Shown: in pieces, positions 971 through 64,000 of the stretch
How the letters are laid out: every line of letters starts with the position of its first letter
Numbering within the stretch: the stretch's first letter is position 1
Source of the DNA: Octopus vulgaris
Taxonomy: Eukaryota
Assembly (NCBI GenBank): GCA_951406725.2
Contig: OX597825.1
Span: 4,650,001-4,714,000 of the forward strand
DNA length: 64,000 nt
Reading direction: 5' to 3'
The notes under the pieces: model-generated
Database searches by the model: none
What the model was told of the DNA's origin: nothing
What the model saw: the letters and a program-made list of their open reading frames with translations, nothing else
Made by a program: the position numbers and the translations under genes

Positions 971-1867
971 TATAAGCGAGAATGAAGCAACAAGAATGGA
1001 TAGGTTTTTAGTACAATCGTTTCATACAAGGACAGGTTTTATTAAAAGTTGCAAAAATTACAGCATATAAACGTGTCCCGTACTCATCAGCTAAAATACA
1101 TGTGAGTTCTCTAGACATCCTAGTGGTTGAGGCTATACTCATGAAGTAATGTAGATAATTAAGTAACATAAACAGATTTCAAAAGTTCATTAAAGTTCTT
1201 TAAAGATGATGTACAGTCTTATCACAGAATTTTAAAAAATTCCTGCTTATTAGCATTACAGAGAGGGTGAATTAATCCTTTGTATAGATGCACAATTTCC
1301 AATGGTGTAGGTGTAATTCACCTACCCTCTCTGTAATGCTAATAAGCAGGAATTGAAACCCACCTCGTTGTAATTAACAATGGATAAATTTGTCTTCTGT
1401 GAGTATGTAATCCCTCATCATATCTCTGGAAATTCATATGTGCACTATGGATTAGGTCACCTTCTCTGTGATGCTATTAAGACTTTTTTTAAAATTCTGT
1501 GATAAGACTGTACATCATCTTTAAAGAACTTTAATGAACTTTTGAAATCTGTTTATGTTACTTAATTATCTACATTACTTCATGAGTATAGCCTCAACCA
1601 CTAGGATGTCTAGAGAACTCACATGTATTTTAGCTGATGAGTACGGGACACGTTTATATGCTGTAATTTTTGCAACTTTTAATAAAACCTGTCCTTGTAT
1701 GAAACGATTGTACTAAAAACCTATCCATTCTTGTTGCTTCATTCTCGCTTATAATCACCCCACATTACTGTATTGTTAAATCAGTATAGTTTTCTTTGGT
1801 GCATCTAAGTTAGGTACCATATCCAAGTAAATTCATTTAAATTAACTTGAATCTTTATTGCTTTTTG
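971..1867 (+). mobile_element. Non-coding Penelope-like fold-back element (inverted pLTR pair plus 3' tail) in (TA)n
   Basis: 971-1239 is the reverse complement of 1485-1753 (~269 bp, no mismatch seen by eye). A nested 31-bp inversion lies at 1238-1268/1324-1354. An unpaired tail runs 1754-1867. Both sides are (TA)n and each arm contains an HHR motif. Confidence 0.8.
1628..1718 (+). ncRNA. Type I hammerhead ribozyme motif with canonical core (mirror copy on the minus strand at 1006-1096)
   Basis: Order of parts: stem I TTTTAG (1628-33), CTGATGA (1634-40), stem II GTACGGGACA...TGTCCTTGTAT, GAAAC (1701-05), GATT, GTA cleavage triplet (1710-12), CTAAAA (1713-18, pairs with TTTTAG). Confidence 0.8.
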
Positions 1868-1947
1868 TATATATATATGTATATATATATACACCTTTAT
1901 ATTTTCGTTTTGCCAGGTTCTTGATCTGAATTCGAGTGTTAAAGCAG

Positions 1948-2172
1948 ATATTGTTGTACTTGGGGATCGTCATGTTTCCAATTTAGCTAATGAAAACACA
2001 AGCACTATGTATTTTGGTGTTTACTCGCTTCAGCTTTATTTCATATTAATTGTATTTCGGCCATAGTTCTTTCGTCACGCGTCTGTGACCTCGTCAGTGG
2101 TCCTTTGCTAACGATCGTTAGTAAGGAAAGACACAAAGAAAGGAGGAAGCAATGGACCACTGATGAGGTCAC
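1948..2172 (-). mobile_element. Older pLTR fragment related to the 59-64 kb Penelope-like element, with HHR motif and short inverted copy
   Basis: 1948-2107 aligns by eye with 59181-59350. The minus strand at 2059-2103 reads GGACCA-CTGACGA-G-GTCAC-agacgc-GTGAC-GAAAG-aa-CTA-TGGCC. Fold-back centre CTAACGATCGTTAG (2108-2121), then a truncated plus copy ending GGACCACTGATGAGGTCAC (2154-2172). Confidence 0.75.
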
Positions 2173-3109
2173 CAAATATAGCGGCAGAGGCCTGAACAAC
2201 AATGAGCTTGTCTCACAGGGAACGTTTCCTGTGTCTCTTTTAGGGACATCCTTATACTTATAATATAAAACCTCATTAATACACGTCCGTATATTGTTCA
2301 GTTAATTTCATTTGCGAGTGGTATACACATTTAAAGGAAATGAGATGAAACGAAGAATTAAACATTTCAATATAAGAATGAAATCACGAAATGTTAAATA
2401 CTTATTTCTTTATAAGTATGTTTTAAAAAAACCGTCATTCGTAAGCGTCGCATCGATGTCTTTGTCTTTTAAACAACACTTGATATTTTCCTTTATCCAC
2501 TTCTCCATTTTAAGATACATTACAATTTTAACCTCGGTAGACGTGGATATGTGGTGAACATTATAGTTTGTTGAGGAGAAATGAAACATGATATTCATAT
2601 CTTGCTGCTAATGTATGTGAAAATATTGTTCCAACCTGGACGTGAAACCGAGTTACTTTTCACATATAGATTTACTCTCCTCTTTTCAGATGTATCCGCT
2701 TTCGTATATATTGCAGTAGTCGCCGAAAAATTGAGCTTGTGGTTGACGTCAAATGAACAGTGTTCACAAATTTATTTCGATTTTTGGTGTTTCATTTAGC
2801 TTTAACAGATTTATTCCTTGTACATTTCTATAAGCAGACATTTACAATTTAACAAATGTGAAAAAAATAACGATATTTCTAATCTATTATATAAATAACT
2901 ATTGGAACTGTCAGTCTAGAGTGTAAATGCTACGAGACAAATGCAAAAAATAAACGAAACCACTCCAGCGTGTGTCGAATGATTTATAGAAAGTATAAAT
3001 CTTATAAACTGGAACAAATTCAACAGCTTCAAACGCTAAAGTGTACTCACAAAAAAAGTATATATATAGACATGTAGTGTTATATATATATATTGATGAA
3101 TTTTCCAGT

Positions 3110-3715
3110 ATAGGCACGAGGTCTAATATCTAAAGGAAGGGCGCTGGTCAATAGTTTCTGCACTAGTACTTGATTACTACTTTAGTTTATGGGCAATGAA
3201 AGGAACTCTCGACCCCATGCAAAATTTGAACCCGGAAAGTACACAGCCATGAGACATGCAAGTATGAATTTTTCCGATGCGCTAACGGTTCTGCCAGCTC
3301 GACGACTTTTATGTAATAAGTTTTTCTACGATAGACATAAGGCCTGAAACGTCTGGTAAGCGAACTAGTCGATTTCATTGACAATGAGAGATTGGTGCTT
3401 ATTTTGTCGACGTCGCTAGAATTTGAACTCAGAACATAAAGATCAAAGGAATGCCGATAAGTATTTTCTCCGGCTTGCTAACAATTCTGCCAACTCGCTT
3501 TTATTTTCATCCATTTAGTAAAACTTTCTACAATAGGAGATAGGTCTGAAACTTCGGGGTGGATAACAGGCATTTATATCAACCCCCAGTGCATGACTGG
3601 TACTTATTTTATCGATCTTGGAGGGATGAGAGGCTAAAGTTAACCAAGACGCAATTTTAAGTGAGAACGTAAAGCCGGAGGAAATGCGGTTAAACATTTT
3701 GTTCGGATCCTGCTG
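3110..3715 (-). mobile_element. Cluster of three diverged tRNA-derived SINE copies (family B)
   Basis: Repeated ...ATTTGAACTCAGAAC...TTCTGCCAGCTCG blocks, the reverse complement of the SINE at 40789. Confidence 0.7.
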
Positions 3716-3959
3716 CCTTTTATTCGTTTAATAATCACAGAAATTACGACATTTTGTTGCCTAATAACGTTAGCGTAATCACACAAAATGTACGGACAGT
3801 GTTTGTAAGATGGCGCAATATTAATATATACGCTCAATGTAAATTCCAAATAGAACTACAAAGAAACAAATATATGTAAGGACAATAAGTACGATGCGTA
3901 TCGTATAAATATTTCACAAACAAACAGACACAGACACGCCCAAGCACACGTAGTTCTAT

Positions 3960-4203
3960 CTAATATATAATGATACATTCATATATACATATATATATAT
4001 ATACACATACATATATATGTAAATATATACGTATATATATATGCATATGTATATATGCATATATATATATATATGCAAATATATATGTATATATATTTAT
4101 ATATATATACATATATATATGTATATAAATATAATAGTGTGTACCTCTCTCTATATACACACACATGCTCTCACACACATATGTACATACGTATACATAT
4201 GCA

Positions 4204-4259
<56 letters not shown>

Positions 4260-4321
4260 TGTATATGTAGTCATATGTATATATGTGTGTAAGTGTGTGT
4301 GTAGAAAGAGAGATACACACA

Positions 4322-4401
<80 letters not shown>

Positions 4402-4973
4402 TAGGAATAAATCTATAAGGTGAAGGATTGTAGGCCATACATAACTTCACTTATGACTTAGAGAATGTGTTAAGATAGCGGATTGCGTTTATAAATCCCC
4501 GTTTCTTTTCCAGCAAATTTTTTTCTAGTCACACTCTTATCAAGCATCCAACACAGTAAATACACTGATGAAAGAACACAGCGCTAAATAATGTGTATTT
4601 CTGCTTGTTTTTATTATTGTTTTCCCATTCTGTTGTTAGATATGGAGAGATTATCCAGCAAAAGGTGGAAATGCATGCGAGGTCGATTAATTTTCCCCGT
4701 TCCTATCTTTATACCTTCAGACATTTCGTAGTTGTAACAGACATATATTTATTGACGTCATACGGTAAAATATTCTTTCGGTTTTTTTTTCTTCTTTCCA
4801 TGTGTTGCTGGCTGAAACCAGAAAGATTTCTCTTCTTAATAGTTTCCTTGTTCACCCTTTCCTTGCATAGGTGTGCGTAGCAGTATCTACACACACAGAC
4901 ACACACACCCTTACTTGCATACACAAGCACACATTCAAACGCATACACATACACACATATATATATACATATA

Positions 4974-5031
<58 letters not shown>

Positions 5032-5056
5032 CACACACACGCAAAGACAAATATAG

Positions 5057-5094
<38 letters not shown>

Positions 5095-5261
5095 GGAGGG
5101 AGAAGGAGAGAAAGGGAGAGAAGGAGAGAAAGGGGAGAAAGAGCATTTATGTAACTATACATTATGCATATAAGCATGTGTGTGCAAGTGCGTGTATTTG
5201 GTGGCTGCAGGCTAAGCCTGAGTGTGTGTATGTCTGTGTGAGTATAGACATACATACAGAC

Positions 5262-5292
<31 letters not shown>

Positions 5293-5395
5293 TGTATGTA
5301 TGTATGTTTGTATGTATGTATGTATGTACGTATGTGTATATGCATGTATGCATTTATGTATCAATACATGCATATGTGCCTGTATGTGTGTGTTG
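3960..5395. repeat. Compound (TA)n/(CA)n/(GA)n/(TATG)n microsatellites with short unique spacers
   Basis: Directly visible; the ORFs here are YIYI/HT translations. Confidence 0.9.
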
Positions 5396-5630
5396 AACGT
5401 TTCATAATACTTCATAATCTAATCCATTTTGACATTTCTGTACAATCAAATCCCTTCAATCGAAGAATTTCCTGAAAGGTGTTTTCATAATCTTGTCAAC
5501 ACGCTTAAATTTTACCATTGAACAGAAGAGATTCTTCTTAGAAGAATATGTCTAAGATGATTTGGTATCGCTTTCTATAAGTGAAAGGTTCATGAGTTTT
5601 ATTTCGTTTATATATATATATATATATTCT

Positions 5631-5666
<36 letters not shown>

Positions 5667-6432
5667 TCTACACACACATATATATATATTCATTTATTCT
5701 ATATGTTATTTATTCATTCTATTTATCTTCTTCCCCCATATGCATTCCATTAGATGCGTAACTAACTTAGAGAATACACGGAATCAGAATAAGAAAATAT
5801 TTCATATTAACATTATGTGTTGTAGATCTATGAAGTAGATTCACATTTAAATTCAACGTGACAACCATTGCTTGTATAAATTTACGTTCCTATCAAAATA
5901 TGCACAAAAGATGCGCGGACACGTATCTAAGAGCTTAGATTCCGAGTCTTATTTACTTTACTTTCCTTATCGCTTTTATTTTAAATGTTTTCTTCTTGAT
6001 CTTTTATATATGATAATGTTTATTTTAAACATATATTCTATTATTCTTTTATATATGTTCATATTTTTCTAGTAGTATATTCATTGCCAATATAATTCAC
6101 AGAATCATCTATGTATCTACCGATGTTTGTATGTGACCGTGTGTGTGTGTGTGAACAGATGGATGGTTTTACATGCATTATGTATGTATGCATACATACA
6201 AACACTAACGCAACCTTGCCATCTGATTCACAAGTCTATGGTTAAAGCATATAAAATAAGTAAATAGAAAATATAACGCAAATATTTTCTTATATAAAAA
6301 CAAACATATGTCCGTGTGTTGCTGTTTTTGTGTATTGATATATATTCACCGACACATGTATATCAATACTTCTATCTATCCATCTAGCTAACTAGCTAGC
6401 TATATGTGAATATGTGTGTATGCGTGTGCACG

Positions 6433-6532
<100 letters not shown>

Positions 6533-6854
6533 GAGGATATATATACTGTTTCTTCAATGAATTGCTATTGAGCGAAACAGGATTATATTCTCAAAGGTAT
6601 GTAGCTCTATAGCGTTACTTAGCTTTTACGTTTATACTCAGGCTTCAGACAGCAGCTTGTTGTAATGTAATGAAATGTTCTACTTTCCAAAATGGTGTTA
6701 CGGCATCGTGAATTCATTGGTTGAATCTTATCATGTGAGACCTTTATATGAGAAGCGTCATGAAATTCTTATATCAAAAATTAGCAAAAGTAATTAATGA
6801 ATAAACTAACAATACGCAAGAATAATTGTATTACTTATCGGGAATGGAAATTAG

Positions 6855-7705
6855 CGGCGACTGACAGAATCGTAAGCATCTTGGACAACATGCTTGGAGG
6901 TTTTCCGTCCGTCTTTACGTTCGGAGTTAAAATTCCTACGAGGCAGACTTTACTTATTCATCCTTAAGGGTCGATAAAATAAGTATCAGTTGAGGGTCGA
7001 TGTAATCGACTAGCCCCTGTCCCTCAGATTTCAGGCCGAACGAAATGCCCCTTAGCATTTCGTCTGTCTTCGTGTTCTGAGTTCAAATTCCGCCGAGGTC
7101 AACTTTGCCTTTCATCCTTTCGAGGTCGATTAAATAAATACCAGTTAATCAGTGGGGTTGATGTAATCGACTTAATCCCTTTGTCTGTCTTTGTTTGTCC
7201 CCTCTATGTTTAACGCCCTGTGGGCAATAAAGAAATAATTATTATTAAGGCACCGAGCTGGGGAACTGTTAGCACGTCGCCAGACAAAGTACTTAACTGC
7301 ATTTCGTCTACCTTTATGTTCTGATTTCAAATTTTAAAATGGTCGACTTTGCTTTTCATCATTTAGGAGACGATAAAATGATTACCACTGAAGTACTGGG
7401 GGGGGTCGATTAAATCGATAAGCACCTCTACCTTCAAATTTCAAGCATTGTTCCTATAGTAGGAAGTATTATCATTACTCTTGCTGCTGTTCTTGTTCTT
7501 GTTGTTGATGTGACAGAGTGAAACGCTAGGTGAAATGCTTACCGTTTTTTCGCCCGTCACTATACTCTGAGTTCAAATTCCGCCGTGGTCGATTTTGCCT
7601 TTCATCCTTTCTGGGTCGATGAAATAAGTACCAGTTAATATCCCTCTCTCCTACTAACCCGCTCTCAGAAAAGTTCAGGCATTGTACCTATAAGAGGATG
7701 AATTA
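6855..7705 (+). mobile_element. Tandem cluster of four family-B SINE copies
   Basis: Four repeats of GAGTTCAAATTCCGCCGAGGTCRACTTTGCCTTTCATCC-like B-box/body (about 6924, 7079, 7323, 7569), separated by AT-rich tails. Confidence 0.8.
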
Positions 7706-7799
7706 ATATTGTTGTTATTCTGGAAGACTCTTGGATAGTTCTTAATTACCGGTTATTCTTTACTGGAAAGCAGTCAATAACAAATCACCAAAGGTTTCA

Positions 7800-8010
7800 A
7801 GTAGTGCATTCTCCTGTGACTCAGAGACAATACTCTCCTTAGAATGCGAGCTGTACCCAACAATACTGTCTTCCGGATTACTTCGGGCCTTACAGCTGCT
7901 CCAAGTATCCTTAATATGTCTTTCAAAAGCTCTTGGAAACTGCTCCTAATGCTCCAATTACCACCGGTTTCACCATTACTTTCCTCATGCCATATAATTT
8001 TCCTATCTCG
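7800..8010 (-). mobile_element. R4/Dong-clade non-LTR retrotransposon 3' fragment
   Basis: The minus strand encodes VKPVVIGALGAV and VIRKTVLLGTARILRRVL, the C-terminus typical of R4/Dong RLE ORFs. An (ATT)n tract lies nearby at 8078-8142. Confidence 0.75.
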
Positions 8011-8076
8011 TCCAGAAGTCCAGAAGTGGCTGGTATTTCTTAATCCGCTTTTTGCATTGTACCTATAGGAGAAAGG

Positions 8077-8129
<53 letters not shown>

Positions 8130-8745
8130 CATTATTATTATTAAATACTTAGCAAAGAAGCATAGATATTAAGATTTAAGCTCTTATATTCAAGATACTG
8201 ATTAGATCGCATAAGAATAGTTTCTATGTCACACACTGCTGAAAATAGCTGTCGTAACAGCAATATGCGCTTCATTTTTTTCTTTTTGTTTTAATACATC
8301 ATTTTATCGCAAAATTGTTTTCCTGTGAGTCTTTCAAGGACCAAATATATATCTAAAGGTATACCTCCCTGCAAATATTCCCGAATCTAAACGAATGGGC
8401 TGCCTTAGAAATGTTTTGTCTTTTCGGTACGCGTCTTTAATACACCTACACCTACTAGTATGTGTGTACTGGAGTACTACCACCCCTTATGAGAGTGTGA
8501 TGTAGTTTATCTCGGGAAATAGTGAACCCCGAACGCTAGCATGGACAAACGGACGTTTCAGTAGAATCAATTGAGCTGTTTCCCGAACGACGTAGGAACC
8601 AGATCAGAAATCAATGGCAGCCGAATTCATATATCTGCACTCTATACTCTATGTCATGTTGTGAGTACTTTTGTTCGTTACATTTCAAACCACAAGTATA
8701 TAAGTGCTCTGTGATGATGTGCCTGTGCGTGTCTGTGTGTTTGTG

Positions 8746-8843
<98 letters not shown>

Positions 8844-9453
8844 AGAGTTCTAATCTGAAAATCTTTCCTCGTCTTGCGGCGAGATTATTTCAATATTGTT
8901 TAAAATGTCAATATATTATCGCACGACCATCTAAACCCCACACTCGCGCTATCACACTCATGCACGCTTATACAGAAATACTCATATATACTCACACACA
9001 CATACACACTTCAACACATCCACACACACATACACACTTCAACACACACACACACTAACACAATCATCCATACGCAAACAGACACGGAGAGGAATAAATT
9101 CTGACTTTAATCACCATTGAAAGTTTCAAAATCTCTTAATCTCGCTGCATCACTATACAGACAGACACCGCTAGATATATTTTATGGATTATTACGCTCT
9201 ATTCTACCCATGTTATATATAATATTTCCAAAATCTACATAGCAAATTTTAGACATATTCAAACACGTTGCAATATCTACTATGTCAATACTTATGATAT
9301 CTTCGTAGCATTCCTGTTTGATAGCTGACCACTACAGTCGACTGCTGTTGGCTGACTACATTTTATAACGACTAAACAAATACATAACACGTGTAAACAT
9401 ATGACTTACGCTACCACACGTGTTTTACACACATATTAATATATGTGTGTGCG

Positions 9454-14207: not shown

Positions 14208-14214
<7 letters not shown>

Positions 14215-15127
14215 GAGTGGCCATGGGAACGAGAAAGGGGCCCAACTATGCGAACCTGATCGTTGTCTACGTTGAGGCCCAAATATTCACTGGTCCCACT
14301 CCCAAACTATACGGCCGTTATATTGACGACTGTACCGGTGCGATCTCACTCTCCCGCGAACATCTAGACTCCTTCATCTTTTCTGTCAAATCTTTCCATC
14401 CTGTCCTCCACTTCTGCACTATCTCTGATACCTCTGATTCCTTTCTTGACGTTTCGTTCAGCATTCTTCACGCCCCTCTCACCACCTCCATCCACTACAA
14501 AAACCCAGACTCACACTCATACCTCAATTTCTCTTCCTCCCACACTAAACACACCAAGATTTTCATCTTCGGTTCTCAATTCCTCCGTCTACACAGGCTC
14601 TATAGTGTCGGCTCTATAAGGCTCAATCTCAACTCATGGCTTGCCACTTCATCCTACGTGGATATCCCCTCACCACTATCCACACCGCCCTTGCCAGAGC
14701 ACGTTCCATGGACCGTGCATCTGCTCTCTCGCCCCGAACCCGCACCGCCGTTTCCCGCCCCGCCGTTTCCCGCTTTCCATTTACCCTCACCTATCACCCC
14801 GCTATCCTACCTCTCCAATGCACCGTTCTCCGAGCCTTCTGGCGACTCCAGTGCGACCCCTCCACTTCGCACATCTTCCCTAACCGACCCTTCCTTTCTT
14901 TCAAATGAGCCCACAATCTACGAGACCTCTTTTTCCACAGCTTCTTCCCTAACCGAACCTCCCAACCCGGCTCGCTCCCCTGCTCCCGTCCATGCTGACG
15001 CACTTTCCCTTACCTTTCCAACACCACCCTCCTCTCCGGCACTCATCATCGATCCTATCACATCACCGACTCCTTCACCTGCTCTTCTACCAATATTATC
15101 TATTGCATCGCCTGCTCTCTCTGCCCT
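14208..15127 (+). pseudogene. Penelope-like element (Neptune-like) RT-thumb-linker fragment, frameshifted, starting directly after (TA)n
   Basis: GVAMGT..GPNYANL, YGRYIDD, FLDV, HSYLNFSSSH, SQFLRL. After a frameshift: RGYP, TLTYHP, a degenerate Cys linker and FTCSSTNIIYCIAC (start of GIY-YIG). Truncated at both ends. Confidence 0.88.
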
Positions 15128-15349
15128 CAAGCTTGAATTGTGGCCACATCGGAAGCGCACAAAGTCTTCTAGACCGGAGTACGACAGTTGCTCCTTTGCT
15201 GCCACTTATTAATAGTGATTTAAGCGGTCCTTTTTGCACACCTAGATTGAGTGGTAGAGTTAGTGGTTACATGATGTCCTCAGGCGCTGTACATGGCCTG
15301 GTTGTTTAGAAAGGGAAACAAGGGGGCTTGAAACATGGTGCGATAGCAA

Positions 15350-19599: not shown

Positions 19600-19880
19600 G
19601 GAATATATCAAATACGAAATGTTTCGTTCTTGGATTTGGTTTGCAAGATTCTTTATGTGAGTTGGTGTGTTGAAGCATATTCTGTTGTGTCTGGGGAGAG
19701 TCATTTTCTTTTGGTGCCTTATAATGTAACACACTCACCGGTAAAATTTCCACTTATTTCTTTTTTATTTTTCTAAAATTTTCGTTGCGTCTTGCGACCT
19801 TTTCAATGATTTTACTGTTGAGTGTGTTTAATTATAAAGCAGCAAAAGAGAATGACTCTCCCCAGACACAACAATATACT
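19600..19880 (-). mobile_element. Penelope-like pLTR fold-back with U3:A8 HHR-like motif
   Basis: Arms ~19675-19748 and ~19809-19880 are inverted (TGTTGTGTCTGGGGAGAGTCATT / AATGACTCTCCCCAGACACAACA). The loop reads on minus TTGAAAA-G-GTCGC-aagac-GCAAC-GAAAATTT (19772-19808). Confidence 0.65.
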
Positions 19881-20314: not shown

Positions 20315-20510
20315 ACCGCGTGTGTACCGTTGGCGATTTTTTTCCCTCTGTCTTCCCTTCTCTGGATATTTCCTTCTCCTATGTTTCCGACGAAGAGCTC
20401 CGCTCGAAACTTTACACCCTCCTTCTTTCCTTCTTTCCTGAGCGTTCCATATTTGTTCCACGTCCTCGCGTTGTTGTGTTTTTTTCTGCTTTCTGGTTTG
20501 GATTAACTAT
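20315..20510 (+). mobile_element. Penelope-like pLTR fragment with minimal HHR-like motif (CCGACGA core)
   Basis: GTTT-CCGACGA-A-GAGC-tcc-GCTC-GAAAC (20383-20410), ending in (TA)n. The same family occurs on minus at 37690-37850. Confidence 0.6.
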
Positions 20511-20740: not shown

Positions 20741-20783
20741 TTACAGTTGAAAAGGTCTCAAACGACCGAAACCTGTACTGAAA
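20741..20783 (+). ncRNA. Minimal type I hammerhead motif with U3:A8 core, within a pLTR-like segment (about 20535-20870) between (TA)n tracts
   Basis: TTACAG-TTGAAAA (20747-53)-GGTC-tcaaac-GACC-GAAAC-ct-GTA-CTGAAA. All three stems can form. Confidence 0.7.
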
Positions 20784-21511: not shown

Positions 21512-21813
21512 GTGGCACTCCGTCGGTTACGACGACGAGTGTTCCAGTTGATCCGATCAACGAAACAGCCGGCTCGTGAAATTAATGTGCAAGTGGCTGA
21601 GAACTCCACAGACACGTGTGTCCTTAACGTAGTTTTCCAGTGGAGATTCAGCGTGACACAGAGAGTGACAAGGCTGGCCCTTTGAAATATAGCTACAACA
21701 GAAACAAGAAGAAAGAGTGAGAGAAAGTTGTGGTGAAAGAGTACAGCAGATTTCGCCACCACCCCCTACGATCGCATGTCTGCTACCCTAACCAATGAGC
21801 CGTTGCGCCTCCA
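21512..21813 (-). mobile_element. Family-A tRNA-derived SINE, internally deleted
   Basis: Reverse complement of 22898-23285, missing part of the head/body. Confidence 0.85.
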
Positions 21814-22897: not shown

Positions 22898-23285
22898 GTG
22901 GAGGCGCAATGGCCCAGTGGTTAGGGCAGAGGAATCGCGGTCATAGGATCGCGGTTTCGATTCCCAGACCGGGCGTTGTGAGTGTTTATTGAGCGAAAAC
23001 ACCTAAAAGCTCCACGAGGCTCCGGCAGGGGATGGTGGTGATCCCTGCTGTACTCTTTCACCACAACTTTCTCTCACTCTTACTTCCTGTTTCTGTTGTA
23101 CCTGTATTTCAAAGGGCCGGCCTTGTCACTCTCTGTGTCACGCTGAATATCCCCGAGAACTACGTTAAGGGTACACGTGTCTGTGGAGTGCTCAGCCACT
23201 TACACGTTAATTTCACGAGCAGGCTGTTCCATTGATTCGGATCAACCGGAACCCTCATCGTCGTAACCGACGGAGTGCTTCCACC
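22898..23285 (+). mobile_element. Full-length family-A tRNA-derived SINE with 12-bp target-site duplication
   Basis: A box TGGCCCAGTGG and B box GGTTTCGATTCC. Flanked by AAATTGCAGAGA at 22886-22897 and 23286-23297. Confidence 0.92.
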
Positions 23286-31888: not shown

Positions 31889-32082
31889 TTATTAAAGCTG
31901 CAAAAACACCACAAGAACTGTTACTCTGAGTTTCACGTTCCCGATCGTTGGACAGTTGTGATCAAGACTGTACGACGAACGGGAACGTGAAACTCTGAAT
32001 AATAAGTTTTATGATGTTTTTTTTTTTAGCTTTAATAAGAATGCGCACTACTCTAACTTCGGTAATCGAGTACTATTTTCCC

Positions 32083-32792: not shown

Positions 32793-33368
32793 CTGGCATT
32801 CTGCCGGTTATGACGAAGAGAGATCCGGTTGATCCAATAAACGGAACAGCCTGCTCGTGAAATTAACGTACCAATGGCTGAGTACTCCACAGACACAGAT
32901 ACCTATTCTTTATTACCCACAAGGGGTTAAACATAGAGGAGACAAACAAAGACAGGCATAGGTCTTAAGTCGATTACATCGACCCCAGTGCGTAAAAGGT
33001 ACTTAAGCTCAGAACGTAGAGACAGATGAAATACCTATTTCTTTACTACCCACAAGGGGCTAAACACAGAGAGGACAAACAAGGACAGACATAGGTATTA
33101 AGTCGACTATATCGACCCCTAGTGCGTAACTGGTACTTATTTAATCGACCCCGAAAGGATGAAAGGCAAAGTCGACCTCGGCGGGATTTGAACTCACAAC
33201 GTAACGGCAGACGAAATACCGCTCAGCATTTCGCCCGGCGCGCTAACGCTTCTGCCAGCTCCACAGACACAGATGCCATTAACGTAGATCTCAGGGGGAT
33301 TTAGCGTTACACAGAATGATACAAGGCTGGCCCTCTGAAATACAGGTACTACTCATTTTTGCTAGCTG
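32793..33368 (-). mobile_element. Family-A SINE (3' part) interrupted by a family-B SINE (32901-33258) with duplicated tail
   Basis: CTCCACAGACACAGAT is duplicated at 32885-32900 and 33259-33274. The inner element is the reverse complement of 40789-41050, and the outer pieces are colinear with 21512-21700. Confidence 0.88.
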
Positions 33369-37689: not shown

Positions 37690-37850
37690 TTAAAAAACAC
37701 GGAGAAAAAGGAACACATGCAAAGTATTAATCATATTCTCAGAGAAGGAAAAGAGTGGTTGTTTTACGTTTCGAGCATAGCCCTTCTCCGGAAAGAGGAG
37801 ACAGGAAAGTTCAAAAGAAATGGAAAAAGGAGGGAAAAATCGCCAACAGT
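37690..37850 (-). mobile_element. Penelope-like pLTR fragment (same family as 20315-20510) with minimal HHR-like motif
   Basis: Minus strand 37761-37794: TTT-CCGGAGA-A-GGGC-tat-GCTC-GAAAC-GTA-AAAC, with palindromic ACGT as stem III. Confidence 0.6.
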
Positions 37851-40788: not shown

Positions 40789-41049
40789 GGTGGCAAGCTG
40801 GCAGAAACGTTAGTACGCCGGGCGAAATGCTTCGCGGTATTTCGTTTGCCGTTACGTTCTGAGTTCAAATTCCGCCGAGGTCAACTTTGCCTTTCATCTT
40901 TTCAGGGTCGATAAATTAAGTACCAGCTACGCACTGGGGTCGATATAATCGACTTAATCCGTTTGTCTGTCCTTGTTTGTCCTCTCTGTGTTTAGCCCCT
41001 TGTGGGTAGTAAAAAAACAGGTATTTCGTTTGCCGCTATGTTCTGAGTA
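40789..41049 (+). mobile_element. Family-B tRNA-related SINE, near full length
   Basis: GCTGGCAGAAACGTTAG head and B-box-like GAGTTCAAATTCC (40861-40873); many copies in this window. Confidence 0.85.
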
Positions 41050-41362
41050 GAAGGTGTTTATAAACCATTTGAAAACACACAAAAACCGTTATATACACTT
41101 CAGCACTTAAATTTAATTTGTGAAAATATTTTCGTTGCTTTGAGACCGCGACCTGTTCACTGACTACCTTCCGTGCAGTGAACAGGTCACGGTCTCAAAG
41201 CGACGAAAATATTTTCACAAATTAAATTTAAATGTTGAAGTGCATCTTACGGTTTTTGTATGTTTCAAATGGTTTATAAACACCTTCCATGCTGCAATTG
41301 TTTTTGTTTCAGCACACGATCTCAGATCAGCTCACTTGCTATGCAAGTGCATCTCCGTAATG
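41050..41362 (+). mobile_element. Penelope-like fold-back with G3:C8 HHR-like motif in both arms, tail ending in (TA)n
   Basis: Arms 41050-41162 / 41176-41287. Consensus GTGAACA-G-GTCGC-ggtctcaaa-GCGAC-GAA-AATATT-T. Confidence 0.72.
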
Positions 41363-53929: not shown

Positions 53930-54360
53930 GTATGTGAATAAGAATGCAAGAGTCAAGGAATTGAGTAGATAAGATCCGAGCTACATATGTTTCATAGCGA
54001 ACGGAACCTCGGCAGTGATGAATATCCAAGCGAAATGTATACTGCAGGCTACTTTTCAGGCCAATGGTATCTTGATTAAATGAAAGGAGTACCTCGTAAG
54101 GAGGTACATGTCAACACACGGACGATTAAATCAGAATCGTCTGTGTGTTCGCATTCTGATCGAATCGTCCGTGTGTTAACATGTACTCCCTTAAGACATT
54201 GTAAATTTCATTTGATGAAGATACGCTTGGCCTGAAGAATAGTCTCCAGTTTACACGTCGCTTGGATATTTACCACTTCCAAGGTTCCGCTCGCTGTGAA
54301 ACATATGTATCCCGGATATGATTTACTCCATTCCTTAACTCTTGTATTTTAATCGCATAC
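53930..54360. mobile_element. Old ~430-bp fold-back element with HHR-like motif in both arms (Penelope-like)
   Basis: 53930-54085 is a diverged inverted repeat of 54206-54360, and the centre holds a nested hairpin. Minus 53979-54062: GGC-CTGAAAA-GTAGC...GCTAT-GAAAC-ATAT-GTA-GCT. Plus 54232-54309: CTGAAGA-ATAGT...GCTGT-GAAAC-ATAT-GTA. Confidence 0.65.
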
Positions 54361-55856
54361 CTGGCAACCCTGCTCGCTTAATGTGAAATATAAAACTTTT
54401 TTCTTTCTTTTCTTTTTGAGCTGACCATACTCCGATACAGAAAAAATCTACAAACCTTCCACCTCAATAAAACTTTATTGTTCCTGAAAATTGTTGTTTT
54501 ATATTTTCTACGGTTTACTTGAAGCTAACCTTCTTCCTACAGCTCGATCCTTGGATCTTACATCTATATTTATATAAATAAATATATAAGCTGATAGATA
54601 TATAAAACCGACGAATTGAAAGCTATCGTGATATGAAAGTGTCTAACACCAGAGATTCTATATCTGATGCTTGACAGCACAGGTTAATTTGAATAAGTTT
54701 ACGTAAGTTTATGTGTGGGTATTTCTATGATTATGTGTGCATATATCTATATATGTTTCTATGAATATGCATACGGACTATATTTCCTTGTATATCTCTA
54801 TGCGTTTGTGTTATTGTTGTCTATGTATTTGTGTAACTGACTCTCCCGTCAACGTATGAGTCTTCAGCGAGATAACAAAAAAAACACACACATCGAACCA
54901 AATAGACAATCAATAACACATAATATTATTACTACTATTCAACAATGCTTACGATTCACTGACTTCACCTGGTGACACCGCATGTGAGCCCTCGGGCCAC
55001 CAAAAGCAATATGGATATGAGCATGACTTATTAAACCAATACTTGGCCTGGCTGAGGAATCACAATGTGGAGAATAGTGGTATGCATCTATCTATGCATA
55101 CATGCATGTATGTATATGTATGTATGTATGTGTATGTATGTATGTATGTATGTATGTATGTATGTATGTATGTATGTATGTATATATGTATGTATATGTA
55201 TGTATGCATGTATGTTTGTATGTATGTATGTATGGATGGATAGTTGGATGGATGGATGAATGTATGTATGTACGTATATGAAGTAACACTCTCTCAAAAT
55301 CGGACACACAGACACATCGTCGCACGAACATCAGCGGTGTGCAATTTCACATTTTTTAAATATATATCAGCGAAATATTATATATCTGAGAATACAATAC
55401 AATTTAACAGGTGGCGGTGCTTGTGTCTTATGGATTTGAAATATAATGAATAACGAAAATATATGTATGTGTGTCTATATATACATATATATAAGCATGA
55501 GTATATGTGTCCATAAATCTATATATATATATATCGTATACATATACCATATATATATATATATAACCCTAGGTCTGTTCGACCAAAGGTTATAGTTGAA
55601 AACATTCGCCCATGTTCCTACGCTGTGAGGTTGAACCTAAGGCCCCATTTTTGGAAGGGGAATTTCCTACCACATAGCAACAGCTGCATACATACATACA
55701 TACATACATGCATACATACATACATGCATACATACATACATACATACATACATACATACATTCATACATACATACATACATACATACATACATACATTCA
55801 TACATACATACATACATACATACATACATACATACATACATACATACATACATACA

Positions 55857-56205
55857 TGATGTCCGTCCACTCGTGACTGAGGATGACCATTGCTGACCTT
55901 CAGGAACATTCAGGAACCAAGTTTTCACCATTCACTACACCAGCAGCGCGCTTTCGAGCGGCACGCTTAAGTTCTCCATGCTGAATACGTGCTCCCTTAA
56001 AGGTGTCGACCCCCTTCTTAACCTGATTCCTCCTTCTGTGGCGATGACAGGCATTGCTCTCCCAGCCAGTCTCCTGCATATCACAGGCCTTTAATGAGGA
56101 TTTGACGCAGTCCTTAAATCGCAGCCTTGGTTTCTGCCGGGGTCTCTTTCCATTCACAAGTTCTCCATATAGCATCTGCTTGGGGATCCTGCTATCCTTC
56201 ATTCT
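55857..56205 (-). mobile_element. RTE (BovB-like) LINE 3' end inserted in (TACA)n
   Basis: RMKDSRIPKQMLYGELVNGKRPRQKPRLRFKDCVKSSLK...W, followed by a short 3' UTR GTCATCCTCAGTCACGAGTGGACGG. Confidence 0.9.
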
Positions 56206-56673
56206 AATACATACAGACATACAGACATACATACATGTATTCACTCATTCAGGTATGTTTAATTATACGCGTTTATTATTGTAATACAAGTAGAGAGTGT
56301 GTAATTCTTCTTTATATTAGAGGTATGCGGGCGCTGAACATATAAGAGTATATAGGAGCGCTATACGTGTGTATATGTGTGTATGTGTGTGTTTGTGCGT
56401 GGTTTGTGTGATCTGTGTATGTTTTATATGTGTGTTGTTTTTGTGTGTGTGCGTATATTGTGCATTGTGTATTGTATGTGATTGTTTATGAAGACGTGCG
56501 TGAAATATCGGTGCGTGTTCCCTTAAGAGATGGTTTTAATGAAGTGGTCAGCCATTTCACTGCAGACCATTACGAGAAGCGGTACTTAATGAGATACTTT
56601 TCAGAAATCAATAAACTTGCTACCTTAGTAGCAGCGGCACCAGCTGCAGCAGCAGCGATGGGAGCAGAAGCCG

Positions 56674-56674
56674 G

Positions 56675-56710
<36 letters not shown>

Positions 56711-56757
56711 CGACGACGACGATGACGATGCTGAGGAGGATGAAAACGACGATGATA

Positions 56758-56803
<46 letters not shown>

Positions 56804-56862
56804 CGATGCTGAGGAGGATGATAATGATGTTAATGATGATGATGATGATGACGACGACGACA

Positions 56863-56894
<32 letters not shown>

Positions 56895-57010
56895 GACGGT
56901 GGTGACGAGGATAATGAAGATTAAGATGATGGTGATACCGAAGATGACGATGATGATAACGACGGTGATGACAATAACGAGGAGGAGGAGGAGGAGGAGG
57001 AGGAGGAGAA
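56674..57010. repeat. (GAT)n/(GAG)n triplet tract
   Basis: Directly visible. Confidence 0.92.
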
Positions 57011-57299
57011 AGAGGGGGCGAACGAAGGTGAATAGTGAGAGATGTGAGGACGATGAAGTTTAGTTATTGGTTTGGTCGATGTTGATGACGAGGCGGATTT
57101 GAGTGTCCTTGGCGTAGAAACTGACATGCTGCATTAAATATATTTCTGCTAATTAGTGCTGCAGTGTATACTAATTAAGACGTAGTTAGCGAGGTGTCAT
57201 TACCTGCACACTTTCGCCAACTTACCAGCTTCTGAAAGAGTGATATATTGCAGCGTACGATCTGACAGGGTATTTAACGGGTTTATGGCCACAGGATGG

Positions 57300-57755
57300 A
57301 TTATCTCCTACAGAGATACATTAGGAAGCAACCTTTTAAGGTTTAAAGATTTCATGTAGTATTAATTATATAACGGCAGAATGGATTAGGTTTATCTTCC
57401 TAGAATTACATGGAGATTAATGTCGTAATAAATAAAGGGTACTAGAAAAGCATTAAGTTTGCCTACAGGAGGTTCAATAAGGGATTAGCTACTAACATTG
57501 TCTTTCGGATGTTATAGAACGGAAGGGAATTAGCTTTCACTGGCTTTCGTTGACATGGAGAAAGCCTTCGACAGGGTCCCCCGATCCCTTATCTGGTGGT
57601 AATGATGAAACTAGGGATAGATGAATGGCTAGTGAGAGCTGTGCGAGCCATGTACAGGGACGCTGTTAGTAAGGTGAGGGTTGTCAACAAGTACAGTGAA
57701 GAATTCCGGGTGGAGGTAGGGGTCCACCAACATACTTACAAGTATACATTCATAT

Positions 57756-57808
<53 letters not shown>

Positions 57809-57869
57809 AATATATGTGCATATGAATGTATACGCGTATGTATGTATGTATGTATATACATATATATAC

Positions 57870-57942
<73 letters not shown>

Positions 57943-58650
57943 TGTATGTATGTATATGTATCGGATGAAAATTTACAGTACATAAGGTTAGTATTAGAAT
58001 TAATGTGAAGACAGTTGTGCGCTATTATGGCTATTCAAGATGCCATTTTATTGTAAGATCAGGTTTTAATTCAAAGTGCTAGTTAATGAAATGCCTGTAT
58101 CGAACTGGTGTTCATTACACTGTTTGTTTAATGCTTTAGCACGATACAATTATATCAAGGGTTTTTGCGAGCGCGAATATTTCAGAATAATTTTGACTGT
58201 TAGTAAAAATTGTTCTAGCATAACAGATGCTATAGAATATTGCTAGGCAAGATATTGAGTTTTCAGATACCAAACGTAGATTGCATGACAAGTGGGGGAT
58301 ATTCTGTCTAAACTTCTGAAAGTGTTATATAAGTTTTAATAGCCTTGCAGTTAAGCAGATATTTCTGCTATTCGGGGTTAACGTTAGGTTTTACGTTAGA
58401 GTGGTTTGAATAGGAATAGTTTTTTCAAAGTAGTTACCATTGAATGGAAACAAGATACGTAATTGGCTGTATTATTTCGGTTATCAGGAATCGAATTATT
58501 TCTTTTTGCCTTATTAGTGTGTGATATGGTGTTAGCGAACTTTCCTAATGTGCAATACCTGGGTTTTAAGTGAATTTTGGTTGAAGTATATTTTTTAAAT
58601 ATGTCACGCAGGAAAATGTATTCGAGCAAGCAAAATGCAGGATTATTTCT
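57300..58650 (-). mobile_element. Decayed relic, possibly the N-terminal part of a Penelope-like ORF, interrupted by an RTE fragment and microsatellite
   Basis: Fragmentary minus-strand peptides in the expected order: AEISA.LQG (cf. E.S.L.KGL), KPDLTIK (pre-DKG region), FYNIRK..NPLL (cf. FY.LPK..RPI). Weak. Confidence 0.3.
57540..57730 (+). mobile_element. RTE-clade LINE reverse-transcriptase fragment
   Basis: [20 protein letters not shown]...[25 protein letters not shown]...[12 protein letters not shown]. Confidence 0.9.
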
Positions 58651-58969
58651 CAGAACAAGGAAAGGGCAATAATTGAAAAGAATGGATTACAACTTGTGAC
58701 ATTTCTTTAGGACTTTCGTTTAAAGGACTATTACATATTCCTTTATTCTTTACCATTTTTCCACCATTAAAATGCAGCCATGCTCGTCCCCACCTTCAAG
58801 GATTTAGTCAACTAAATCGAAACCAACACATTATCTAATTATTTTATCCAAAGCTTTCGCCGAAATCCTGCATTATATGGATGTATACGACCCAACACCG
58901 ATTGCCAATCGGTGAGAGGAAAAGTATAAAGACAAGCATACACATGGACACATATAATTGTATATATAC

Positions 58970-59010
<41 letters not shown>

Positions 59011-59060
59011 CATATATAAATATATAGGCATGTGTGCGATATACGAATATATATAATGCC

Positions 59061-59092
<32 letters not shown>

Positions 59093-59130
59093 TATATATA
59101 CGTATATATATATATATATGTATATATATG

Positions 59131-59187
<57 letters not shown>

Positions 59188-59207
59188 ATATTTCGGAATG
59201 GTCATAT

Positions 59208-59845
59208 TGCCAGTTTAGCCAATAAAAACACACGCACTATATATTTGGTGTTATTTTGCTTCAGTGATATTTATTTTTTACATTAATCTTAATCTTATTT
59301 CGGCCAAAGTTCTTTCGTCACACTCCTGTGACCGCATCAGTGGTCCTTTGTTTTCTTCTCACTTACTTGTGTCTCTCTTTACTAACCGTCAGCCATTTTG
59401 TATTTCTATTGTATGTCTTCATTTGCGCATGCTTATATCTCTATGTGCGTCTATGTTTATTTAGTGTGTGGGGGGGATGCCTGTAATATTTGTATCTTCT
59501 GGTTATATACATTCTTGTAATTTGTATTTTGTTTTTGTTGTTGTTGCTTTTGTTCTAATTTTATTCATGTGTTTACATCCACCCATTATTATCATTACAT
59601 ATGCTTGTATGTATGTATAACAACAATACTAGTAATAATAATAATAAATCTAATCGAGAAAAAAAAAAAAAGAATATACATATACATATATATATATATA
59701 CATACATATACATATACATATATATATATATATATATATACATATATACACACATATATACACATATACATATACATATATATACACATATACATATATA
59801 TAGATATTCATTTCTATTTCTTTAATTACCTGTGTATTTATTATG
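59208..59845 (-). repeat. pLTR / 3' UTR (left arm of inverted repeat)
   Basis: By eye it differs from 63358-64000 only by one substitution (CTCTTT vs CTCCTT) and A13 vs A17. Confidence 0.92.
59302..59346 (-). ncRNA. Hammerhead-like motif in pLTR, sense to the ORF (A9C core variant); mirror copy on plus at 63862-63906
   Basis: GGACCA-CTGATGC-G-GTCAC-aggagt-GTGAC-GAAAG-aa-CTT-TGGCC. Confidence 0.6.
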
Positions 59846-59864
59846 TTTGCAGGATCCACTATTG

Positions 59865-62800
59865 TCATATGTTGTGGTGTGCGCTATTGCTCCATTCTAG
59901 TTTTCTATTCAGGCTAGGTTTATTTTCTATTATATGTGTAGCTTCTGTAATTTGTCTAATTGTTGCATCTGTTCTATGTGTGGACAATATCTTAATCTCT
60001 ATGTTATTGATTGATCCCCCGTGTTCTTGTTCGGCGTGTTGGTACAGAATCGATGAGCTTTTACCTTCCTTGAGTTGTCTCCAATGTTCATTCACCCGCT
60101 CACCAATGCTTCTTGCAGTTTCCCCTACGTATGTTACTGTCTTGTTACTGCATCGTCCCTCTATACATCTTATACTATAGACCACATTTCTGGCTTTACA
60201 GTTCGTTTGTGGGCTAAATCTACATACAGTGCAATAGTTATCCGTACAGAGAGTTCTACTAAAAGGATAGGTTCTACCAATTATAGATCTGATAGGGTTG
60301 CCTGGCTTTTCAACAACCTTAATTCTTAGTTTAAGTTTATCTAGGGTCCTTCTAAAGCGGTACGCTAGTTCACCTCCAGGGGTGATGTCAACGAACATGA
60401 CACTCTGGTATTTATGGCTATCATACCAAGAGTTGGCCTTCCTTATTTTCTTTTTTGTCCTTTCTATAGTGTTCCATGACTTGTTCCTATAGAGTGGGCA
60501 AATCCCATTCCTATCATTACATAATATATTATCAAATTTCTTCATGGCTCCTTTGTATACTCTGATCCTTTCTTTATGGCTGTAACCTGAGAACTGCATG
60601 CGGTGAATGAAATACTGTATGTGTCTCTTTAATTCTGTAGGCTCGCACATGCGTGACACATTTCTCATTATTCTGACGAGGTCTGCCATCAAAATATTGA
60701 ATTTGGCATTGCCCGCAATGGCTGAGTTCCGGTGGATCAGGTATTTTGAGGCCATAGGTTTTGCATAGTATGAATGAAGGATTTGGGTTTTATTTTTCAC
60801 AATTTCTAGCCAGAGTTCAGTGTCTAGTACTGGTAGTCTATGGTTGGGGTGTTTAGTGGGGTAGTCTATTGTGACCTTAATACTCTGGTGGATGGAGTTA
60901 GCTATTTGCTGGATGCTCTCCATAGTATTAGTTTCTATTACTATATCAACAGTACTTTCTTGTGGGGGTGCCTTTACTACTATATTGATATCATCAACAT
61001 AGCGAGAGTACATGTTTACGAGTATGGATTTCTGCAGTAGGCATTCTTTAAGCCTTCTGTCCCACCATACCATGAAGAGGTTGGCCACATCACCAGCGAT
61101 ACTAACACCGATGGCTGCCCCCTCGTCCTGGGCATATATTTTATTATTAAATTTAAATGTGTGGCCTTTTAGGGTAACTCTTATACTAGCTCCTAGTGCA
61201 TGTGCGATCATTTTCTTTACCTGATGGACATTTGCGGGGCTCCGTATGGCTCTGGTCCATCCGCGCCATCTTTCTATATGTGTCTTCCTAGCCATAGAAG
61301 TAATTGTAGGCGGTCTACCTCTTAAACATCTACTGGGGCAGAAACTACTAAGATTATGTTTATCTAAGTATTCACTATTATATGTCAGTCTAAGTAGGAG
61401 GCCCAGTTCTTCTGTGTCGACATTACAGAACTCCACCTGGCTCTCGTTGATCATCTCCACGCACTTCTCCACTGCAAAATCTACGTCAATCGATGGGTAT
61501 AGGGATACCACATCCATGCTACCTACTATACATCCTGTCAAGTCACAAGTTTTGTTACAGTCACTGATCCTGCTTAGGAGATCTTCTGTGCTGTCACATA
61601 CATCAGGTGACATCCTGATTATAGGGCGTATGATCATTGAGAGGAAGTAGGAGATTCTGTAATTGCTAGCGATATTCGCTCCACAGACTGGTCTTGTTGG
61701 TGGTCCTGCTATAGGGTCAGTAAAACCTTTATGGTCCTTGCGAAGTCCATACAGTGCCGGGATATCATTGTTCCAGGCTTGGAAATTCTTTGCAGTACGT
61801 TTCTGAGGTCCCAGAACAATTGTCCACATCATCATGTGGGCATTGAGGACCTTTTCTCTCTCCTCATGCGCCTGTACAGTTGTTACTTTTGTATTGGTGA
61901 TATGAGGTTGCATTGCCTGGATGTAGTTCGGTAAGCTGTCTATTGACATCCTGCCAGACTTATCCGTGGGAAGGCATATCACCTCTCCGTTCCTCGTGCG
62001 CTGAATGAGCTTCTGTAGGCCACATGCAGGTTTAATCCCTAGTTGTTGGGCATCTGTCTTATTCTGTCTCTGTCTCTTAATGTATAAACCTAAAATCTGT
62101 CTAAGTTTGGTCCTAGCTATAGTGAACTGTGCTTCCATGTGGTCATTAGTACGTCTTGGGATGTATACCCTTTTGTTGAAGGGTAATGTTGTTGGATAAA
62201 TTCGGTTCATGCAGTAAGTTTTGTCGCATACGTTGAAGAATTGAGTGTCAAAGGGATGGGTATACATGTCAATGGTCTCTCTAGGGTTATCTTCATTATC
62301 GTTACTGTTTCCAACATCAGCCTTCCTATTATTATTATCACCATTACCACTACTACTACTACTACTAGTATTCCTATTACCACCACAACTATCACTACTA
62401 TCCTCATTACTACTTCTACTGTTACCATCACCACTACTACTACCACTATTATTGTTATTACCTTTATTCCTACCATTGCCATTATTACTATCATCGCTAG
62501 TGATATATTCATTGTTCCTGTTTCTGGTATATGTGTTGTTTATATTAGTGTTGGGTTTTATGTCTGTCTGTTGGTCCCTGTCAATCCCCCTGTTGCGGTC
62601 GTTATTTTTGTTCCTATGAGTATTGTTATCTGTTTCAAGTCCGCTGACTCCCTGTCCAAGGATCCTGTTGCATTCAACTTTATTCTCCATCGTGACCCCT
62701 ATGACACAACTTTTATTCGTGTTTTTGTGACTATGGCTATCTGTGTGTGTGTTTGTGTGTCGGTTCTCCCTATAATTGTTGTTGTTGTTGCTGTTGTATA

Positions 62801-63357
62801 CGATTTTTCTCTCTCTGTTTGTGTTTTTGTTTTTGTATCTATTGTTTGTGTCTATGCATACATTTTTTCTATTGTTATTGTTGTTGTCGCTGTTAGGGTT
62901 CGTGTTGTTGTTGTTGTTGTTGCCGCTGTTAGGGTTCGTGTTGCTTTTGTTGCTACGGTTGTTATTGTTGCGGTCATTATTGTTTGTGTTGTTGTTGCTG
63001 CGGTTAGTGTTTTTCGCGTTGTTGTTGTTGTCGCAAGTGTTGTTGTCATAGTATCTATTTAAATTCCAACGTATTTTTGTGAACGACTTTTCAATCTCGG
63101 ACAGGCATTTGATGGTATTCACTTTACTATACACTGCATACTTTGGTGGTAGTTGAAGTATCGATATTTCATCTGGGTCCGTTGTTACTCCCCCATAGAT
63201 GTTCGCTTCATTGTCTTTATTGAACTCTTCTGGTAGTAGCACATCTTCCATAATAATTCCATTTATTGTATCTGGATACTTCTGCTTTTCTTCCTTTGCG
63301 AGCTCATATTGACGTTTCTGTTTCAACCACGATAACTTCCTCTTAAAATGGATATTG
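59865..63357 (-). CDS. Penelope-like element polyprotein: reverse transcriptase + CX4CXXC linker + C-terminal GIY-YIG endonuclease (N-terminus truncated; first ATG at 63251)
   Basis: PTDKSG (DKG motif), [75 protein letters not shown]...[22 protein letters not shown]...PSLN. No internal stop. Confidence 0.95.
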
Positions 63358-64000
63358 CATAATAAATACACAGGTAATTAAAGAAATAGAAATGAATATC
63401 TATATATATGTATATGTGTATATATATGTATATGTATATGTGTATATATGTGTGTATATATGTATATATATATATATATATATATGTATATGTATATGTA
63501 TGTATATATATATATATGTATATGTATATTCTTTTTTTTTTTTTTTTTCTCGATTAGATTTATTATTATTATTACTAGTATTGTTGTTATACATACATAC
63601 AAGCATATGTAATGATAATAATGGGTGGATGTAAACACATGAATAAAATTAGAACAAAAGCAACAACAACAAAAACAAAATACAAATTACAAGAATGTAT
63701 ATAACCAGAAGATACAAATATTACAGGCATCCCCCCCCACACACTAAATAAACATAGACGCACATAGAGATATAAGCATGCGCAAATGAAGACATACAAT
63801 AGAAATACAAAATGGCTGACGGTTAGTAAGGAGAGACACAAGTAAGTGAGAAGAAAACAAAGGACCACTGATGCGGTCACAGGAGTGTGACGAAAGAACT
63901 TTGGCCGAAATAAGATTAAGATTAATGTAAAAAATAAATATCACTGAAGCAAAATAACACCAAATATATAGTGCGTGTGTTTTTATTGGCTAAACTGGCA
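63358..64000 (+). repeat. Inverted pLTR copy (right arm), continues past the window end
   Basis: Reverse complement of 59208-59845; it joins directly onto the open reading frame at 63357/63358. Confidence 0.92.

Follow-up and report, generated by a model that had tools for sequence, protein, structure and literature searches.

Natural exchange of the 3:8 core pair in hammerhead motifs of Penelope-like elements of Octopus vulgaris

In a 64,000-nt stretch of the Octopus vulgaris genome (contig OX597825.1; C12:4650001-4714000, the genome spanning 2.8 Gb on 227 contigs; hereafter the window) and among its repeat relatives elsewhere in the genome, we analysed hammerhead ribozyme motifs of several families of Penelope-like elements (PLEs). 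All four Watson-Crick forms of the pair between core positions 3 and 8 (C:G, U:A, G:C and A:U) were found in different families of this one genome. The data support that, at the level of families, changes at 3:8 preserve complementarity far more frequently than expected if the two positions changed independently. That a tertiary pair belonging to the active conformation has repeatedly been exchanged for a complementary one speaks, on evolutionary grounds, for selection of this conformation and suggests that the motif is still maintained to fold into a likely self-cutting shape. We propose that these are minimal type I hammerheads whose 3:8 swaps probably go back to selection keeping the catalytic fold, with slow cleavage being tolerated or favoured.

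Architecture of the motifs

An earlier note on the window, made from its letters alone, had listed ten cores. Coordinates and letters proved exact for all ten, and each has hammerhead-shaped flanks: a first stem I strand precedes the 7-base core, an additional base often follows it, then come stem II, GAAA and a rudimentary, palindromic stem III, and the NUH cleavage triplet with the second stem I strand closes the motif. The features of minimal type I hammerheads are present, namely a closing helix I, a helix II of 2-6 bp beginning with G-C, GAAA, A15.1-U16.1 and, as expected of this class, a rudimentary helix III that is palindromic. U at position 17 occurs in several families, matching published examples. 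Helix II shows exceptions: the A3:U8 family has only 2 bp, and the families of the cores at 1634 and 54232 have about 60 nt. The cited cores fall into eight repeat families. They are fewer independent examples than the list implies, because in several cases two cores are the arms of a single inverted insertion; five such pairs were seen (1090/1634, 41160/41178, 31951/31972, 54059/54232 and 59340/63868).

A descriptor with positions 3, 4, 7, 8 and 9 free was applied to genome stretches at even spacing, 600 kb in total, and gave 15 matches, of which 13 have a Watson-Crick 3:8 pair and seven come from one tandem array; on 1.8 Mb of shuffled sequence it gave four matches, one with a Watson-Crick pair. 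This descriptor, otherwise strict, recovered none of the window's own sites. The window DNA is very microsatellite-rich, and an Rfam scan returned mostly microsatellite hairpins, with no hammerhead among the best 150 of 479 matches.

Variant cores as family states

Genome pattern searches were run with the family flanks fixed and the seven core positions free, reversed patterns serving as controls. Core states were tallied by eye for the first 100 listed places in chromosome 1 order, inverted partners being counted twice. For all four flank patterns (59340, 41178, 20387 and 20747 families), the reversed controls had no match.

G3:C8 is the state of the family residing in the palindrome 41050-41287. 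One arm bears the core 41160-41154 (motif 41117-41167, minus strand, G12 at 41133), the second arm the core 41178-41184 (41171-41221, plus strand, G12 at 41205, predicted cut after 41214); both window copies miss stem I pairs present in the family. Genome-wide there are 7,208 matches, forming two subfamilies or more, and 95 of the 100 listed places are G3:C8, the other five showing a single change at 3 or 8 and none being compensated. Sequencing-run contigs bearing the labels of three other organisms contain the family too, and no alternative letter reaches 5% in its core; cover was thin in a fourth.

Two window families are U3:A8. The young family of core 20747-20753 (20744-20780, plus strand) has 1,976 genome matches (U3:A8 in 99 of the 100 listed, wobble in one). 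For that of core 19806-19800 (19773-19809, minus strand), a DNA query lacking the core gave U3:A8 in 37 of 45 rows, two rows being out of register. A3:U8 was met outside the window in a family (L221:2043-2081, L281, L351-L380) with a 2-bp stem II, a linked GIY-YIG frame and 1,365 first-look candidates; it was seen in 38 of 38 rows retrieved with a query that contained the core, and two of the loci were first met via the GIY-YIG frame. In a further U3:A8 family with a 2-bp stem II (L158:5736, L330, L141/L142, L151), a U3/G8 wobble occurs at two independent loci, possibly an intermediate state.

Other families are changed at single core positions. The cores of the 20387, 31.9-kb and 59340/63868 families are no instances of 3:8 covariation: the first two deviate at position 4 and the last at position 9, and the pair is still C3:G8. 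The A9C motifs of the window lie within the 3' repeat of an element (core 59340-59334; 59302-59346, minus strand) and in its inverted 5' arm (core 63868; 63862-63906, plus strand), the arm 63693-64000 being 99% identical to 59208-59514. This family has 3,842 matches with copies 99% alike; the 100 listed include C3:G8 in 97, C9 in 92 and A9 in seven. A DNA query made from the 59.2-kb tail had no match, presumably owing to words of too high frequency. U4C characterizes the family of core 20387-20393 (20383-20417, plus strand; stems I and III are decayed in the window copy, which misses a stem III pair present in the family), with 12,234 matches and, among the 100 listed, C3:G8 in 94, C4 in 71 and U4 in 27. 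The old 31.9-kb family is represented by an inverted pair of decayed hammerheads (31918-32005; cores 31951-31945 on the minus and 31972-31978 on the plus strand). Its commonest core is C3:G8 with U4C, and a sister subfamily (L066, L078) is canonical. A core-free DNA query found C4 in 26 of 39 rows and U4 in six, seven being unreadable (too decayed or out of register); the U4 rows and the A5 seen in seven of the 39 are consistent with CpG decay of a C4 master. A third U4C family (L278, L279, L275, L287, L288) has C3:G8 with U4C in eight of ten rows, its relatives L204 and L283 being canonical. Finally, A13C is seen in 45 of 45 rows of the young family L292-L320 (e.g. L295:3066-3110), whose 784-codon frames are intact and whose U3:A8 motif has very weak stems. 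These positions are nearly invariant in hammerheads, yet in expanding families U4C is fixed in three, A9C in one and A13C in one.

As the earlier note had supposed, the variants are family states: in core-free tallies of the 59340, 41178, 20387, 20747, 19806 and 31.9-kb families the majorities do not revert to CUGANGA, which rules out copy-specific decay as the origin of the variants in all tallied families. CUGANGA is not the core of these six. It stands at 1634, 2097 and 54232, so that the description of all listed cores as non-canonical was too broad; the motifs at 1634 and 54232 are unusual only in their stem II region of about 60 nt. A Watson-Crick 3:8 pair is the majority state in eight of eight window families. 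Complementarity, which the note had stated for the better-preserved copies, holds for these majorities, not for each copy: single copies bear mismatches (C3/A8 at 54059, A3/G8 at 31972).

Link to Penelope-like elements

Nine families in all, four of them among the eight window families, could be tied to open reading frames (ORFs) for reverse transcriptase (RT) and GIY-YIG endonuclease. In the window, the A9C repeats accompany a PLE frame of 1,170 codons (59865-63377, minus strand; element 5'-truncated) with RT, a Cys linker and GIY-YIG at the C-terminus. The frame shows motifs resembling RT and GIY-YIG and had no Pfam match; its Atlas neighbours at 0.96-0.98 carry RVT_1 and GIY-YIG. It is 99.6% identical over 790 aa to a frame of 1,312 codons, a full-length twin, at locus L152, and tblastn connects the 59340-family protein with the RVT_1/GIY-YIG protein of the 20747 family. 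The partial-tandem repeats and inverted 5'-truncated arms of PLEs are both present, the former around the respective frames of L151 and L152, the latter in the window. The N-terminal part of the window frame (61700-63300, minus strand) is long, Asn/Ser-rich and of low complexity, and is open in the window as well as in L152.

The 20747 family flanks an ORF for RT and GIY-YIG in tandem and inverted arrangements (Pfam: RVT_1; GIY-YIG at 22.4 bits vs a cut-off of 22.6). In this family (L151:3566-7163, minus strand; L154; L161) an upstream frame of about 436 codons overlaps the RT-endonuclease frame by about 60 nt, which suggests a programmed frameshift. The 19806 repeat lies downstream of a related PLE frame at one locus, L192. 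Copies of the G3:C8 family are mostly repeat-only insertions of about 210 nt, and five of 121 sampled copies reach further upstream. A query from the upstream part of these long copies gave 482 candidates; 15 of 30 fetched loci, in sense or on the inverted arm, hold a frame 45-67% identical to the window protein, corresponding to the RT-thumb/GIY-YIG end of a PLE ORF, with an identity of about 50% to the C3:G8 element of the window. In a comparison of the frames of the G3:C8 and 19806 families with the 59340-family protein, identity was 43-55%. Locus L236 was ruled out as an ORF link of the G3:C8 family, being an insertion into another element's frame.

For the 20387, 31.9-kb and 54232 families, no linked frame was seen in the loci examined. 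The assignment of all motifs to PLEs in the earlier note is therefore borne out for the four ORF-linked window families; those of 1634, 20387, 31.9 kb and 54232 are tied to no frame and appear Penelope-like by architecture only. GIY-YIG matches were also sampled (30 top loci plus 19 from 150 listed) to avoid choice by core. Downstream of these we met more U3:A8 families, U4C, A13C, wobble and A3:U8 families, and several families without a visible motif.

Covariation at 3:8 on the protein tree

On a tree of 29 C-terminal protein fragments (one short row left out), the C3:G8 family of the window, the G3:C8 family and the U3:A8 family of 19806 form one clade (100/100). The 20747 family sits in another clade, where the A3:U8 family is sister to a U3:A8 family (97/92), both nested within a U3:A8 group (86/86). 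Starting from C:G, parsimony would require about four double changes and one wobble, and no fixed mismatch. Mismatches as common as complementary pairs would have spoken against the proposal of the earlier note; none is fixed among the 11 ORF-linked tips. With four changes at position 3 and five at position 8 placed independently on the 11-tip tree (200,000 runs), all tips were paired in 0.083% of the simulated runs (P 0.0008), given an assumed C:G root, 11 tips selected by the analyst and a tree alignment of at most 280 residues with one row 44% filled. Counting the complementarity of the double changes alone gives (1/3)^4 = 0.012.

The distribution of states on the tree supports selection on the 3:8 pair. 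Alternatively, the swaps might be neutral accidents of founding that befell master copies with already dead ribozymes: the copies of a family all inherit one master, therefore thousands of them represent one event, and other core positions are indeed changed singly. Against this stand the roughly four double changes, all complementary, together with the single wobble, the lack of a fixed mismatch in 11 ORF-linked tips and the probabilities just given, both the simulated one and that for double changes alone. We rate such accidents as the least probable of the explanations considered.

Folding, 5' ends and evidence on cutting

In six of eight natural copies the lowest-energy fold, as predicted, contains stems I and II, and the G3:C8 family has a 5-bp stem II and, in intact copies, a 7-bp stem I. 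These stem lengths and the complementary swaps, as well as the activity of U3:A8 in natural examples (PMC3088659), would agree with fully active variants that process each tandem transcript with canonical-like efficiency. Yet a corresponding double mutant regained cutting only in part (PMC11167929), minimal motifs cleave poorly even as dimers (PMC4209133), and the whole motif is retained at the 5' end of short copies. Full activity is hence very improbable in our estimation.

The starts of short copies cluster about 23 nt before the core in the G3:C8 family and about 13 nt before it in the 19806 family; contigs of two sequencing runs show the same 5' boundary joined to unrelated upstream DNA. 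Among short copies keeping the +1 A, the base at -1 is G in 15 of 26 (P about 1e-5 vs 19% G), whereas long copies have C. An extra G before the +1 A is expected of a capped start, because the cap is copied. Alternatively, the sharp 5' ends could stem from splicing, as the boundary coincides with a branch-point/pyrimidine/AG signal resembling a splice acceptor. The capped start fits the extra G and the unrelated upstream DNA better than splicing. With either origin, sharp 5' ends mean that the template contained the whole uncut motif, and short copies, judged from their ends, mostly derive from uncut RNA.

Besides the splicing alternative and the constraints on the tree named above, several observations weigh against selection for a cutting fold. 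Copies of the A3:U8 and A13C families do not adopt the hammerhead in their lowest-energy structure. Genomic 5' ends give no clear signal at the cut site: the predicted cut coincides with the start of only three of 121 G3:C8 copies, each of them a fold-back junction for which stem I complementarity accounts. ORF-anchored families without a recognisable hammerhead within 1.2-1.7 kb downstream exist as well (L271, L273, L276, L277, L203, L284 and L080). Moreover, young families whose frames are intact have fixed A9C (92 of 100 listed places) or A13C (45 of 45 rows), so that expansion may need no cutting at all. Changes of A9 or A13 to C strongly impair hammerheads, a statement that PMC3088659 backs only in general terms.

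This raises the question if the fold is retained merely as a structural signal, for instance for protein binding, for starting or pausing of RT or for protection of the 5' end, cutting being lost or incidental in most families. The fixation of A9C, A13C and U4C in expanding families and the origin of copies from uncut RNA are in line with such a role, as are the dispensability of cutting in vitro (PMC11167929) and the Naiads, which thrive without canonical hammerheads (PMC8557442). However, the 3:8 pair belongs to the catalytically active conformation (PMC3884650), and selection on helices only is therefore hard to sustain in view of four complementary replacements. We regard a purely structural role as rather unlikely, the maintenance of a catalytic fold being the preferred explanation. 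The conclusion of the earlier note that 3:8 complementarity implies selection is thus strengthened by the family-level swaps and the simulation, and tempered by the other fixed core changes and the predominance of copies from uncut RNA.

The role of hammerheads in PLEs is puzzling, as the motif is conserved, yet slow and dispensable in vitro. We propose that the motif lies at the extreme 5' end of the element transcript, behind a probably capped start. Most RNA would be copied uncut, giving rise to thousands of short repeat-only insertions, and a smaller part would be cut, either once two palindromic stems III have paired or through the aid of the element protein. Fast cutting would strip the cap and shorten the template; therefore slow cores (G:C, A:U, U4C, A9C) could spread, while a mismatch at 3:8, with which a tested relative no longer cuts, would fail to reach fixation. 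More tentatively, the 5'-terminal hammerhead may act as a switch, slow by design and triggered by protein, between capped RNA that serves as messenger or template and cut RNA, and the expanding families, with all four 3:8 pairs plus wobble, U4C, A9C and A13C, a natural saturation test of its core.

Relation to known hammerheads

The closest known system is the min-HHR, the minimal hammerhead of metazoan PLEs (PMC4209133). Shared features are the location in terminal repeats, a short helix I, an extra base between 9 and 10.1, a palindromic rudimentary helix III, frequent U at 17 and many solo or closely inverted copies. With the min-HHR of Cercyon from Schistosoma mansoni, the octopus families share U3-A8, which a standard descriptor misses; about 1,300 such matches in Schistosoma escaped the first descriptor (PMC4209133). 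With respect to what that source describes, G3:C8, A3:U8, U4C, A9C and A13C were found as family states only here, and the core states are here mapped on a tree of element proteins. The assertion that CUGANGA searches overlook these motifs is accordingly correct for the large families; the motifs at 1634, 2097 and 54232 would be found by them, and the miss of U3:A8 was already published (PMC4209133). In this genome, standard descriptors undercount the motifs by many thousands.

In the hammerhead PAc of the Anolis Poseidon element, C3G or G8C alone abolishes cutting and the double change restores it partly; cutting requires the element's protein, insertion in vitro proceeds without cutting, and the template is mainly uncut RNA (PMC11167929). 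Ribozyme type, host element class and an uncut main template are shared with the octopus families, but G3:C8 is an engineered rescue of C3:G8 in PAc and here a natural state with more than 7,000 matches. Of natural core variants, PMC3088659 describes covariation to U3-A8, and a viroid U4C that is slow in vitro and sufficient in vivo; both changes recur in octopus, whereas G3:C8 and A3:U8 are not named in its relevant passages. Small dimer-cleaving PLE hammerhead variants with a short palindromic stem III were reported by Lunse, Weinberg and Breaker 2017 (cited in PMC6765202). The palindromic stem III is common to both sets, and so would be dimer cleavage; that collection may already include some of the core variants.

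A literature search, with Lunse 2017, Przybilski and Hammann 2007 and some supplements outside its scope, yielded no natural G3:C8 or A3:U8; in the passages found, G3-C8 appears only as an engineered variant (PMC3884650, PMC11167929), and no relevant passages were found in the portions covered of further material (2026 retrozyme preprint, PMC11014351). As far as these sources go, minimal hammerheads in PLE repeats and U3:A8 are already known, and the natural family states G3:C8 and A3:U8 are new. The natural core, for which two 3:8 pairs were known, thereby comprises four. Matched natural constructs for rate, dimer need and help by the protein are available in sister families that differ in their cores and have intact proteins.

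Further sites

The canonical motifs of the window are arranged as follows. The perfect inverted pair 971-1239/1485-1753 bears two type I motifs, one with core 1634-1640 (C3:G8; 1628-1718, plus strand; stem I of 6 bp, stem II region of 60 nt, G12 at 1701, predicted cut after 1712) and its mirror arm with core 1090-1084 and long stem II (1006-1096, minus strand); a single copy of 97% identity to the 1634 motif was found at L095. Core 2097-2091, with A9, belongs to a minimal hammerhead (2059-2103, minus strand) that is an older relative of the 59.3-kb family (77% identity) with a truncated inverted partner at 2154-2172 (plus strand). The type I motif of core 54232-54238 (54229-54312, plus strand; G12 at 54298, stem II region of about 60 nt) has its mismatched inverted partner at 54059 on the minus strand.

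A decayed relative of the 20387-family motif, absent from the list of the earlier note, was seen at 37743-37850 (minus strand). A decayed PLE RT/endonuclease fragment (14214-15157; 22-31% identity to the L154 protein) had no clear hammerhead downstream. Outside the window, locus L061 (2300-4600) holds a retrozyme-like tandem array in both orientations, made of units of about 359 bp that each contain a canonical type I hammerhead. Short interspersed repeats that have many dispersed copies and no relation to the hammerhead families lie at 32796-33352, 40796-41047, 21513-21767, 23027-23278 and 6861-7639.

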